From assembly GCA_965215775.1 (NCBI GenBank), contig CBDCEG010000027.1:101860-165859 (forward strand): 64,000 nt of DNA. The letters run 5' to 3'. Source of the stretch: Cardiobacteriales bacterium. Its GTDB lineage: Bacteria; Pseudomonadota; Gammaproteobacteria; Cardiobacteriales; Ostreibacteriaceae. Below the pieces are notes generated by a model. It saw only the letters and a program-made list of their open reading frames with translations. It was not told the DNA's origin and did not search any database. Positions 37,952 to 39,614 of the stretch are shown piece after piece (position 1 is the first letter of the stretch; the number at the start of each line of letters is the position of its first letter). Position numbers and translations under genes: made by a program.

Positions 37952-38449
37952 CTAATGTCTTTTATTTTTATACTCTTCCACTGTTTCCGTTAAACCATGA
38001 AAAGATAACCCCTCTAACCAATTTATACCTATATCATAAGAGTATAAATATTCCATTCTCTCTTCCATATCATACTTTAAAATCCATGCTATCCAAAATT
38101 TCAAATACGATTCTCCTATTCCTTCTCTAAAACACATTTGAACATCTAATATTCCAGGGAAGCATACCCAAGGAGGGTAAAATTTCATTTGATTATTATA
38201 CTCTTTTAGTTTTTTCCATTTTCTATAGGAGCTAAAGTAAACTTGCATATAAATTGTATGTTTTTCAACCACTACATTAAAATTTTTCTCAATATCTACT
38301 GATTCCATAAAATATAAAGCTTCTGATAAGAATATGAATTTAACTTGCTTTTTTTGTATCATTTCTTTTTTGAATTTTTCTCGTTCTTTTTTAAAACCTA
38401 AAAAATGTTTTATTGTTTTTAACATTTTAATAACCTTTTTAATTTTCAT
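37952..38449 (-). CDS. Candidate immunity protein for the upstream PAAR toxin (cytosolic, unknown family)
   Basis: 165-aa ORF with no signal peptide or TM helix. It overlaps the toxin stop by 11 nt. The call rests on context only. Confidence 0.45.
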   Translation of the reverse strand: MKIKKVIKMLKTIKHFLGFKKEREKFKKEMIQKKQVKFIFLSEALYFMESVDIEKNFNVVVEKHTIYMQVYFSSYRKWKKLKEYNNQMKFYPPWVCFPGILDVQMCFREGIGESYLKFWIAWILKYDMEERMEYLYSYDIGINWLEGLSFHGLTETVEEYKNKRH

Positions 38450-39614
38450 CTATATAGTCAGCTACCCAATCTGCCCCAAAATACCCAGCAAAACCAAAAA
38501 CAATACCTCCTACTATTCCAGATACTATGGCGCCTGGGCCAGTTTCTACACCAACTAAAGCTCCAGCAGCCCCGCCTAACCTTGCTCCCGCCCATGCACC
38601 ACCCCAACCTCCTGTTTGACGAATAGTTTCAGCTACTACAGGTTTGTAACTTTTTTGTTCTATAGATTTCATTGTAGCATTTTTTATCTCTATCGCTGTT
38701 AAACCTATTGACAAAATAAAAAGACCTTTTCCTGCAATATTCATTTTTTTCATTAATTTATATTCTTTCTCGGTCATAATTGCTCTTTTAGGAACTCTTT
38801 TTTCTACTAATATTTCTGCTTCAACCTTATCAATAATTGTTAAAAGTTTATTAATTCTTGAAGAAAGGTGAGGTTGTTCTCTCTTTAATAGATGCAAATC
38901 TTTTATAATTTCTTGTGTTGATATGATTTTTCCACCGTGTTTTTTAGCAACTTCTATATCTATATAAAATTTATGGGTATAATCGATTCCTCCTGCTCCT
39001 GCTTCAATAGTAGAAGCCGAGGTATAGATACTATTTGTATTTCCTAATGCATGTAATCCAGGTCTTTTAACGATAGAGTTGCCTTTTTTTATTAAATCCC
39101 CTCGCGGAATAATTCCATATTTTTTAGGATTTTGTGTAATTTCTTTAATCATATCATATGGATATGATATTGAAGTTAATCTTGTTAATGTACCTTCTTT
39201 AGCAACCTCTTTATAAAAAACATATAAAAACATATTGATACCATTTTTATTTCCATCAGAATAGTTTTGGTTCTTTCCTTCATTTCCACCATAACCTTTT
39301 GCCAAATTTTCTGCTTTAGATGGAATAGGAACAACACTAGCCCCGCCAGTATCAACCAGATAAGAGCTATCGCCATTTACAATAACGCCACCGTGTGAGC
39401 TTTTTGCTCCTTTAAAAGAAACTAACTGTCCTTCTGAAATTGCAATTGGAGTTCCCTCAATTATAACTGCCCCACAACCTGCTTTATCTCCAATACAAAC
39501 GGTAGGTTTCCCATTAACTATTGTCTTACCACAACCACTTACCAAAGGTGTTACCCCATGTCCTGGTATTGGACAACTGTGCATATCTCCTAATGTTGCT
39601 ACTGGTTTTGCCAT
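38439..39614 (-). CDS. PAAR-domain polymorphic toxin candidate (PAAR, then R-S-ExE-like domain, then TM helix and glycine zipper)
   Basis: 391 aa with N-terminal PAAR-like repeats (GDMHSCP, GKPTVCIGDKAGCG, SSHGGVIVNGDSS). The middle domain has IIPRGD, IYTSAS and EAEILVE. The C-terminal tail is rich in GxxxG. Confidence 0.7.
   Translation of the reverse strand: MAKPVATLGDMHSCPIPGHGVTPLVSGCGKTIVNGKPTVCIGDKAGCGAVIIEGTPIAISEGQLVSFKGAKSSHGGVIVNGDSSYLVDTGGASVVPIPSKAENLAKGYGGNEGKNQNYSDGNKNGINMFLYVFYKEVAKEGTLTRLTSISYPYDMIKEITQNPKKYGIIPRGDLIKKGNSIVKRPGLHALGNTNSIYTSASTIEAGAGGIDYTHKFYIDIEVAKKHGGKIISTQEIIKDLHLLKREQPHLSSRINKLLTIIDKVEAEILVEKRVPKRAIMTEKEYKLMKKMNIAGKGLFILSIGLTAIEIKNATMKSIEQKSYKPVVAETIRQTGGWGGAWAGARLGGAAGALVGVETGPGAIVSGIVGGIVFGFAGYFGADWVADYIDEN

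Follow-up and report, generated by a model that had tools for sequence, protein, structure and literature searches.

The window analysed here, a stretch of 64,000 nt from contig CBDCEG010000027.1 of a Cardiobacteriales bacterium, carries on its minus strand a gene for a 391-residue protein (hereafter, the effector) comprising an N-terminal PAAR domain, a Gly/Asn/Lys-rich linker, an enzyme-like domain (the head), and a C-terminal glycine-zipper membrane module (the tail). A small partner gene is located directly downstream, and its open reading frame (ORF) overlaps the 3′ end of the effector gene by 11 nt. The present analysis is focused on the architecture of the effector, the family formed by its head and tail, and the partner gene, and provides a proposal for their function in a type VI secretion system (T6SS).

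Architecture of the Effector

In the ORF listing, the effector gene is intact, with no interruption over 391 residues; the initial annotation of this DNA had reported the ORF correctly but left its strand, which is minus, unstated. A Shine-Dalgarno sequence (AAGAGGA) is found 8 nt 5′ of the ATG, and a protein identical to the effector (P0001), encoded on a 182-kb NCBI/ENA contig, was retrieved by a protein database search. The N-terminus had been assigned to the PAAR domain, and the profile search proposed for it agrees: PF05488 matches the effector in two stretches starting at residue 2, with 46.9 bits versus a gathering cut-off of 27. Furthermore, the NCBIfam model T6SS_PAAR_dom is matched weakly (E 2e-4), and the solved PAAR proteins 4jiv_D (E 0.012) and 8gra_J are also matched weakly, aligned over residues 3–97. 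In the AlphaFold2 (AF2) model, the predicted local distance difference test score (pLDDT) of residues 1–97 is 30–50, because the alignment rows contained no other PAAR sequences. The effector has no N-terminal hydrophobic segment, and its linker contains no TTR domain; in relatives, a TTR-like segment is located instead on PAAR or VgrG proteins that are encoded separately. The PAAR domain and the head and tail in one ORF, with the partner gene at its 3′ end, constitute the layout of a specialised ("evolved") PAAR effector, and the assignment of the protein as a PAAR-domain T6SS toxin is supported.

Conservation in the head was counted in an alignment of 89 sequences, and 62 heads from reference genomes (alignment A4) served as an independent set. 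Residue R145 is arginine in 84 of 85 sequences and H188 is histidine in 86 of 88; S199 (87/89) and S201 (88/89) are located within the motif [FY]-x-S199-[AT]-S201, and D219 is kept in 88 of 89. The glutamate E267 is invariant (89/89), and the neighbouring position 265 is occupied by glutamate in 55 sequences and aspartate in 34, in the context [ED]265-x-E267-[VI]-L-[ILV]. Among the 62 independent heads, the only invariant columns are R145, H188, S199, G227, and E267. The initial annotation had aligned R171, Y197–S201, and E265-x-E267 with the R-S-ExE triad of ADP-ribosyltransferases (ARTs). All of these motifs are present at those residues, and S199, S201, E265, and E267 are conserved, so their resemblance to the triad is more than chance. 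By contrast, the column of R171, covered by 88 sequences, contains K (26), R (20), P (14), A (9), L (5), T (5), and others; with arginine in only 20 of 88, R171 is ruled out as the catalytic arginine and its match is attributed to chance, the conserved arginine being R145. Candidates for the active site of the head are R145, H188, S199-x-S201, and E265-x-E267.

A model of the head alone (residues 125–295) has a mean pLDDT of 91 and a predicted template modelling score of 0.83. R145 is placed in a strand at 142–147 and S199 and S201 in the next core strand (197–201), and E267 opens a strand at 267–271 after a helical hairpin; the predicted order R, S, E of the strands is that expected for an ART core. 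When the head was compared with the Protein Data Bank (PDB) by Foldseek, seven of the ten best matches were ART-superfamily proteins, with pertussis toxin S1 first; the remaining six were two entries of KptA/Tpt1, mosquitocidal toxin (MTX), cholera toxin A, TccC3, and a further pertussis chain, and AvrPphF was matched below the top ten. The highest Foldseek probabilities were those of KptA/Tpt1 (0.96 and 0.89). The viral library yielded nothing useful for the head beyond one weak phage "RNA 2′-phosphotransferase," and NCBIfam contained no ART match for it.

When all PDB sequences were searched with a profile built from the 62 heads, 9ZDM chain B was matched with an E value of 9.8e-5. This chain is RhsF-CT, the toxin at the C-terminus of RhsF, a T6SS effector of Chromobacterium violaceum, solved in complex with its immunity protein RhsFi (CV_1431/CV_1430); its ART fold resembles ScARP and the pertussis-like toxin EcPltA (bioRxiv 10.64898/2025.12.06.692724). 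In the HMMER alignment, the E-H motif, S199, and E267 of the head are opposite H46, S58, and E110 of 9zdm_B. The spacing of S58 and E110 (52 residues) equals that of S1445 and E1497 of RhsF, which fixes the RhsF numbering, such that S199 is aligned with S1445 and E267 with E1497. Relatives of RhsF-CT were also sought with a 45-residue fragment, which gave no candidates. Judged from the profile match, the head is a distant relative of this ART-fold T6SS toxin, and the match provides an independent route to the same pertussis-like structural neighbours. The head is probably an ART-superfamily enzyme. The earlier suggestion of an ART-like middle domain is supported, with weak fold evidence (see below), whereas the relatives then named (C3/Vip2/ExoS-type transferases and Tre1) are replaced by pertussis/cholera-type toxins and RhsF-CT.

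The tail contains eight strict GxxxG motifs and 29% glycine in its last 56–60 residues, and three helices are predicted in it (282–320, 324–353, and 360–388). The first helix holds a hydrophobic stretch at ~296–314, in hydropathy as well as in the model, and is followed by a polar conserved loop; the last two, joined by an invariant ETGPG turn, are predicted to be a glycine-zipper hairpin, and the tail ends with the acidic sequence DWVADYIDEN. The zipper and a hydrophobic helix (then placed at ~295–310) had both been noticed in the initial annotation, as had the order of an enzyme-like domain followed by a membrane tail, which is indeed unusual for PAAR toxins. The hairpin includes invariant or near-invariant G, W, and E-T-G-P-G columns (alignment A6), and residues 323–391, with a mean pairwise identity of 66% versus 39% for the head, are the most conserved part of the protein. 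The Pfam models Gly-zipper_YMGG and Gly-zipper_Omp match 17 and 6 of the 89 members, respectively, below threshold, and the tail profile has no significant match among PDB sequences; its near-full-length alignment with the pore-domain hairpin of colicin B is not significant (E 0.53) and is a lead only. Taken together, the assignment of the tail as a glycine-zipper membrane module is supported. Almost without exception, the complete proteins with the head that were recovered in an exhaustive head-only search of 1.84 billion representatives have the tail as well. The same tail is also found on proteins with the core marker (DUF4157) of extracellular contractile injection systems (eCIS) and a different middle domain. 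At locus L083 (3269–10240), three consecutive large genes each carry the DUF4157 marker, and the middle one (P0095) has the glycine-zipper tail and a different middle domain common to P0088, P0091, and P0092.

Table 1. Features of the effector and partner genes, in positions of the window.
Feature	Position	Strand	Basis
Complete effector gene (391 aa and stop) with PAAR, linker, ART-like head, and glycine-zipper tail	38439..39614	-	ORF listing and translation
PAAR spike-tip domain, aa 1-95	39330..39614	-	PF05488, NCBIfam, solved PAAR proteins
Gly/Asn/Lys-rich linker, aa 96-129	39228..39329	-	Sequence; pLDDT <50
ART-superfamily-like enzyme head, aa 130-285	38760..39227	-	Model, Foldseek, family profile vs PDB
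R145 codon, first core strand, candidate NAD-binding Arg	39180..39182	-	Conservation; predicted strand 142-147
R171 codon, arginine of the initial annotation, not conserved	39102..39104	-	Alignment column
H188 codon, conserved His of E-H motif	39051..39053	-	Conservation; aligns with RhsF-CT histidine
S199-A200-S201, "S-T-S"-type motif, second core strand	39012..39020	-	Conservation; predicted strand 197-201
E265-A266-E267, ExE motif; E267 candidate catalytic glutamate	38814..38822	-	Conservation; opens predicted strand 267-271
C-terminal membrane module, aa 286-391	38442..38759	-	Predicted helices, hydropathy, alignment A6
Glycine-zipper hairpin, aa 335-381, with conserved ETGPG turn	38472..38612	-	Near-invariant columns
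Cognate partner (putative immunity) gene, 165 aa	37952..38449	-	Partner-family HMM, synteny

Relatives, Partner Gene, and Genomic Surroundings

The middle domain had been regarded as unique; in fact, residues ~125–391 belong to a widespread family, with 95 matches in a search of 5.8 billion proteins, and head and tail together form a conserved cassette found at well over 100 loci in many phyla. Members are mostly 294–300 residues long without an N-terminal domain, or ~350 residues long with an N-terminal LysM domain, and have no public names other than "glycine zipper family protein," "putative membrane protein," or "hypothetical protein." Reference genomes, when scanned, yielded 80 loci, which span Enterobacterales, Pseudomonas, Burkholderiaceae, Vibrionaceae, Bacteroidota, Myxococcota, Desulfovibrio, Planctomycetota, Acidobacteriota, and others. 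The members of E. coli, Shigella, Enterobacter, Citrobacter, and Salmonella are located directly after vgrG, and the E. coli homologue lies between this vgrG and a second one, inside a complete T6SS cluster. T6SS proteins, for which the flanks were searched with E. coli queries only, were matched by tblastn in 48 of 82 loci, vgrG often ending just upstream. The closest relative (71% identity; locus L089, 31.5% GC) follows vgrG, a DUF4123 adaptor gene, and a small ORF, and is followed by the partner gene; this relative is a LysM-effector. Another relative (L087) is preceded by a DUF4123 protein. A PAAR gene is linked to the cassette in 14 other loci and is a separate ORF in all of them, as in Stutzerimonas (L038), where a PAAR-TTR protein is encoded in a separate, translationally coupled gene just upstream; the in-frame fusion is found only in the window. 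The cassette also forms the C-terminus of an Rhs protein (L022) and the end of a 2,513-residue SpvB/TcdB-type Tc-toxin fusion (L078). No paper describing the head-and-tail family or its partner family was found in the literature, and the accessions of the "pore-forming" STox_18 family in a Salmonella effector survey could not be matched to this one. The family is a previously undescribed variant within the T6SS polymorphic toxins of ART type with immunity, and the window protein is its PAAR-fused member.

Several relatives deserve separate mention. The fusion protein at L078 (3071–10612) has SpvB and TcdB middle domains and FG-GAP repeats, as a TcB/TcC-type fusion, with the cassette as its C-terminal variable region, and no partner-family gene was detected near it. 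Short 3′ remnants of effector genes, comprising the tail or the tail and part of the head, are found in L077 (10001–10862), L061, L019, and L079; an intact partner gene is kept beside the first three, and L079 has no partner match. The N-terminus of the L019 remnant appears by eye to be derived from an insertion sequence (IS), and the four remnants look like displaced toxin ends left by recombination. In L089, the effector–partner pair is immediately followed (3444–4954) by a second LysM protein (363 residues) without head or tail and then by a 140-residue ORF, which probably constitute a second, different effector–immunity pair. Members of the LysM or peptidoglycan-binding type occur in L039 (a metagenome-assembled genome of Parachlamydiales), L037, L062, and L079 (Planctomycetota), and L053 and L068 (Acidobacteriota); the domain was confirmed in L037 and L062 and seen in the N-terminal sequence of L053. 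The above queries detected no T6SS gene in the flanks of these six loci. A partner match is present in five of them (none in L079), covering only the ~75–100-residue core in L053 and L037 and ~220 residues in L068.

The initial annotation had proposed the downstream ORF for experimental testing but had not recognised it as a member of a conserved family. Of 51 downstream ORFs compared, 43 form one homology cluster that includes the partner ORF of the window, and the hidden Markov model (HMM) of this family matches the window ORF with an E value of 8e-30. According to the HMM, the gene that directly follows the effector belongs to this family in 71 of 82 loci, as it does in L087 and L089; the shared core comprises ~70 residues (PPW..FP...W.QG..E.W...W.PFW..L...E..YL...W.). 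The family has no hydrophobic segment and no signal peptide, and the partner has no relative in Pfam, NCBIfam, or the PDB. It was also considered as a relative of RhsFi, a possibility rejected since its profile has no match to the 9zdm chains at E ≤10. The family is absent from four loci, in three distinct contexts, whose protein has the tail only, and no second conserved (membrane-embedded) partner gene was seen in the loci with genes listed. As far as sequence comparison can tell, this is a new family of soluble proteins that follows the head and not the tail, and the synteny suggests that the partner is the cognate immunity protein. An Aquimarina contig (L014) carries two copies of the partner family (3976–4437 and 7988–8446), one beside the effector and the other ~4 kb away; the second copy may be an orphan immunity gene.

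The window has a GC content of 29.4%, and its QueA reaches at most 56–61% identity to named relatives (unclassified gammaproteobacterial metagenome-assembled genomes, Ostreibacterium, and Kangiellaceae), which points to an uncultured gammaproteobacterium as the source. The effector gene, directly preceded by a gene for a HAD hydrolase, is surrounded by housekeeping genes (HAD hydrolase, MurB, sigma-54 regulator, RecX, QueA, HemC, Psd, and RNase H). A Pfam search of 20 neighbouring ORFs identified only housekeeping families, one IS30-type transposase, and family-less ORFs. Seven E. coli T6SS core proteins had zero tblastn matches in the window, and besides toxin and partner, no window ORF matched the flanks of 86 related loci, apart from the generic similarity of a response regulator (see below). 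The earlier statement that the 64 kb contain no vgrG, hcp, tss, or DUF4123 gene thus holds as far as covered by tblastn, the flank comparison, and Pfam on the 20 neighbours, not every window ORF having been profiled. The composition profile displays no clear foreign-DNA signature around the effector gene, promoter and terminator scans are at background level, and PADLOC reported no defence-system match.

Three lipoprotein genes without a Pfam family (35861–37779, minus strand) are located directly downstream of the partner gene. They were considered as extra immunity genes and rejected: none has homologues in any related locus, and they are therefore not counted in the toxin system. Two of them (36570–37100 and 37195–37779) are paralogous, with 31% identity (E 6e-13) and a common terminal ISNTMLLPKSEIL motif. 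A T6SS link of the sigma-54 response regulator (41431–42996, minus strand) was likewise rejected, its matches in 10 related loci representing generic AAA+ similarity; in this protein, the linker that connects the AAA+ lid and helix-turn-helix domains (DDDDDMGMNFDLDSDSDND ... TVETVETTEVET) is acidic, repeat-like, and unusually long. The region 44999–48735 (minus strand) comprises the IS30-type transposase, with an rve domain, followed by two pairs of small paralogous proteins (46028–46516 with 46537–46911, and 47365–47769 with 47879–48298) and, interspersed among them, small multi-pass membrane ORFs (46954–47256 and 48295–48735). Three of the four paralogues have a hydrophobic N-terminal segment, 46537–46911 as called being without one, and all four have in common a C-terminal motif like [TS]-x-K-P-[IVL]-x-F-[LIM]-x-C. 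None of the five ORFs scanned among these six (46954–47256 was left out) has a Pfam match, and the arrangement bears a resemblance to an array of periplasmic immunity-like genes. Finally, an XseA-like ORF (31876–33390, minus strand) contains, by eye, an apparent internal tandem duplication of ~45 residues, in which ...YKLKR.QLLNLNNR.KVQHP... occurs twice.

Proposed Mechanism and Rival Explanations

On a modest balance of the evidence, we favour the explanation that the protein is a specialised ("evolved") PAAR effector of a T6SS, with a head of the ART superfamily, a membrane tail that anchors or translocates the head, and a downstream immunity gene. Briefly, the PAAR domain would sit on the VgrG spike, so that the whole protein would be fired into a neighbouring cell; the tail would insert into the cytoplasmic membrane of the target and bring the head to, or hold it at, the cytoplasmic face; the head would use NAD+ to modify a target in the recipient cytoplasm; and in sister cells, the soluble partner would counteract the head within the cytoplasm. 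A cytoplasm-acting enzyme that is neutralised there is favoured because the partner is soluble, because it follows the head, and because the head has a catalytic-type residue set. The initial annotation left a choice between a bifunctional and a self-translocating cargo; the comparative evidence favours, short of proving either option, an accessory anchoring or translocation tail. A precedent for translocation is provided by the T6SS DNase Tde1, the N-terminal glycine zipper of which is needed for membrane permeabilisation and entry and does not support killing alone (PMC10240207).

A number of observations weigh against this explanation. The Foldseek matches of the head are all weak (E 0.05–2, TM-score ≤0.45), the Pfam ART models match none of the 89 members at E ≤1, and the alignment with RhsF-CT covers two short stretches only, the arginine being outside both. 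For RhsF-CT itself, ADP-ribosylation and the target have not been demonstrated (bioRxiv 10.64898/2025.12.06.692724). The statement that the partner follows the head is based on the three tail-only contexts only, and ~10 head-containing loci, some of them cut by contig ends, have no detectable partner. Many relatives carry an N-terminal LysM or peptidoglycan-binding domain, suggesting a periplasmic location for at least part of the protein. T6SS genes were not seen in the 64 kb, within the coverage described above. The far greater conservation of the tail than of the head, like the LysM or peptidoglycan-binding domains, also fits a tail that acts as the weapon or a protein with both parts toxic.

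If the tail is the weapon, which we consider unlikely, it would form an ion-conducting pore or otherwise depolarise the inner membrane, as Tse4 and other glycine-zipper toxins do, and the middle domain would be a non-catalytic scaffold or a domain for targeting or regulation. Membrane-potential-collapsing glycine-zipper T6SS toxins are known, the tail recurs on unrelated heads without the partner gene there, and the below-threshold Pfam zipper models and the non-significant colicin B alignment point in the same direction, as does the public annotation, which rests entirely on the tail. However, partners of membrane-acting toxins are usually membrane proteins, such as Imm-Act1, whereas the partner here is without a membrane segment or signal peptide and accompanies the head but not the tail; in the loci with genes listed, there was no sign of a second partner gene of the membrane-embedded kind, and an R/H/S/E set invariant across phyla is hard to explain for a scaffold. 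A truly bifunctional protein, in which the tail permeabilises and helps to kill and the head adds enzymatic toxicity inside, appears similarly improbable. Both modules are under strong constraint and the head always occurs together with the tail in complete proteins; the glycine-zipper region at the N-terminus of Tde1 inhibits growth when overexpressed, yet that region gives no killing support in competition (PMC10240207). Each locus nevertheless has one conserved partner gene, encoding a soluble protein, which would leave sister cells unprotected against a toxic tail.

The head may also have an ART-superfamily fold and another chemistry (an NAD+ glycohydrolase, a KptA/Tpt1-like RNA 2′-phosphotransferase, or a modifier of nucleic acids or small molecules), a possibility that we rate slightly lower still. 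It is consistent with the KptA/Tpt1 entries having the top Foldseek probabilities and with the phage "RNA 2′-phosphotransferase" among the viral matches; RhsF-CT, furthermore, resembles ScARP, a modifier of guanine nucleosides, and RNA-modifying ART toxins are cited in the RhsF paper (bioRxiv 10.64898/2025.12.06.692724). Against it, the invariant glutamate of [ED]-x-E-[VI]-L, the S-x-S strand, and the first-strand arginine constitute the R-S-E transferase signature, which is established knowledge restated in the paper on RhsF and is unlike the R-H-R-R tetrad of Tpt1. Such chemistry would differ from the favoured explanation in substrate only. Least probable, in our estimation, is a stranded or decaying orphan undelivered by any system of this organism, or a toxin delivered by another route than a T6SS. 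The 64 kb in which no T6SS core, adaptor, or chaperone gene was seen, the IS30-type transposase 5 kb away, the truncated remnants elsewhere (L019, L061, L077, and L079, the partner being kept in the first three), and the LysM-type relatives in lineages without a T6SS gene seen nearby, including Planctomycetota and Parachlamydiales, all agree with it. By contrast, the ORF is intact, with a good ribosome-binding site and all conserved catalytic-type and tail residues kept, and the overlapping partner gene is intact as well. No role of the PAAR domain is known outside contractile injection systems. Furthermore, PAAR genes are often found away from T6SS clusters, e.g., in C. violaceum, where PAAR genes lie outside the predicted clusters (bioRxiv 10.64898/2025.12.06.692724).

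The favoured explanation of the window protein can be extended, tentatively and with less confidence, to the ~100-residue tail in general, as an autonomous and portable entry module that carries or tethers enzyme heads across the cytoplasmic membrane and is common to several injection machines. These would comprise the PAAR, VgrG, and Rhs effectors of the T6SS, a BC fusion of a Tc toxin, and the eCIS-marker proteins, the module being obligately paired here with an unannotated branch of the ART fold and a new, tryptophan-rich family of soluble immunity proteins. If this is true, the tail would be a general C-terminal "entry domain" of contractile-injection toxins, present in common T6SS clusters of E. 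coli, Shigella, Enterobacter, and Salmonella. How cytoplasm-acting T6SS effectors cross the inner membrane is an open question, for which prePAAR effectors, with their N-terminal helices, and Tde1, with its N-terminal glycine zipper, are known leads; the present family is a different and very tractable case, with a discrete, extremely conserved C-terminal module, and genetics should be easy because vgrG immediately precedes the members of E. coli, Shigella, Enterobacter, Citrobacter, and Salmonella. Proteins named "glycine zipper family protein" are a large set and might be taken for pore-formers, yet those of this family have an enzyme-like domain that is not annotated and in which an R/H/S/E set is invariant. 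In the case of the window organism (29% GC), an active T6SS is predicted by this finding to be encoded elsewhere in its genome.

Comparison With Known Toxin Systems

RhsF-CT is an antibacterial T6SS toxin domain with an ART fold, as is probable for the head, and the E-H motif, a [FY]-[IL]-S-[AT]-[ST] strand, and a [DE]-x-E-V-L-I strand of the two are aligned. The immunity protein of RhsF-CT is soluble and cytoplasmic and neutralises it by means of a tryptophan at the active site, and the window partner is likewise soluble, although its family has no sequence similarity to RhsFi. Toxicity of RhsF-CT requires R1403, Y1456, and E1497, with a partial contribution of S1445 (bioRxiv 10.64898/2025.12.06.692724); Y1456, the third key residue, has no conserved counterpart in the head family. 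RhsF-CT comprises ~126 residues at the extreme C-terminus of an Rhs protein without a membrane tail, whereas the head comprises ~155 residues, with a helical hairpin inserted before the ExE strand, and the delivery domain is PAAR in the window effector versus FIX-Rhs in RhsF.

The R-S-E toxins of the pertussis and cholera type (pertussis toxin S1, cholera toxin A, and EcPltA) are the best structural matches, with pertussis toxin S1 at the top and cholera toxin A among the top ten. They have an order in common with the head, comprising an arginine in strand 1, Ser-x-Ser in strand 2, and [QE]-x-Glu in the strand that follows the active-site loop. The histidine between arginine and serine is presumably also common to them, as His35 of pertussis toxin and His44 of cholera toxin. 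However, these are AB5 toxins of eukaryotic cells without a membrane tail, whereas the window protein would be an effector of interbacterial type and has a tail, and its head has no detectable similarity to curated ART models and the low TM-scores given above. Tre1, Tre23, TreTu, and RhsP2 represent the same concept, in which a PAAR or Rhs carrier brings an ART-fold toxin through the T6SS and immunity is provided by a cytoplasmic protein; the toxin domain of these effectors is C-terminal and not followed by a membrane module, and none of the four was matched in sequence or fold in any search of the window protein.

Tde1 of Agrobacterium tumefaciens (PMC10240207) is similar to the window protein in combining an enzymatic T6SS toxin with a GxxxG-rich hydrophobic segment. 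It uses a DUF4123 adaptor, and DUF4123 genes adjoin the closest relatives of the window protein; furthermore, the Tde1 zipper and the window tail both weakly resemble pore hairpins of the colicin/pyocin type. The Tde1 zipper is a single short N-terminal segment overlapping the adaptor-binding site, whereas the window tail is C-terminal, comprises ~100 residues in three helices, is much more conserved, and is found on several heads and delivery systems. Tse4, Tme1/2, Ssp6, VasX, and EsxX of the type VII secretion system are secreted antibacterial effectors that, like the window protein, have a glycine-zipper or hydrophobic C-terminal region. Toxicity of these effectors resides in the membrane segment, and their immunity proteins are generally associated with the membrane, in contrast to the enzyme-like head and soluble partner of the window. 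Finally, in prePAAR effectors with transmembrane domains and Eag chaperones, such as Tse6, the proposed function of the hydrophobic helices is to take a toxin that acts in the cytoplasm through the inner membrane of the target; these helices are N-terminal and flank the PAAR domain, and an Eag chaperone is needed (refs 59–60 of PMC12994826). The window effector differs from this class in that its PAAR domain begins at residue 2, its hydrophobic module is C-terminal, and an Eag-like gene is absent next to it.

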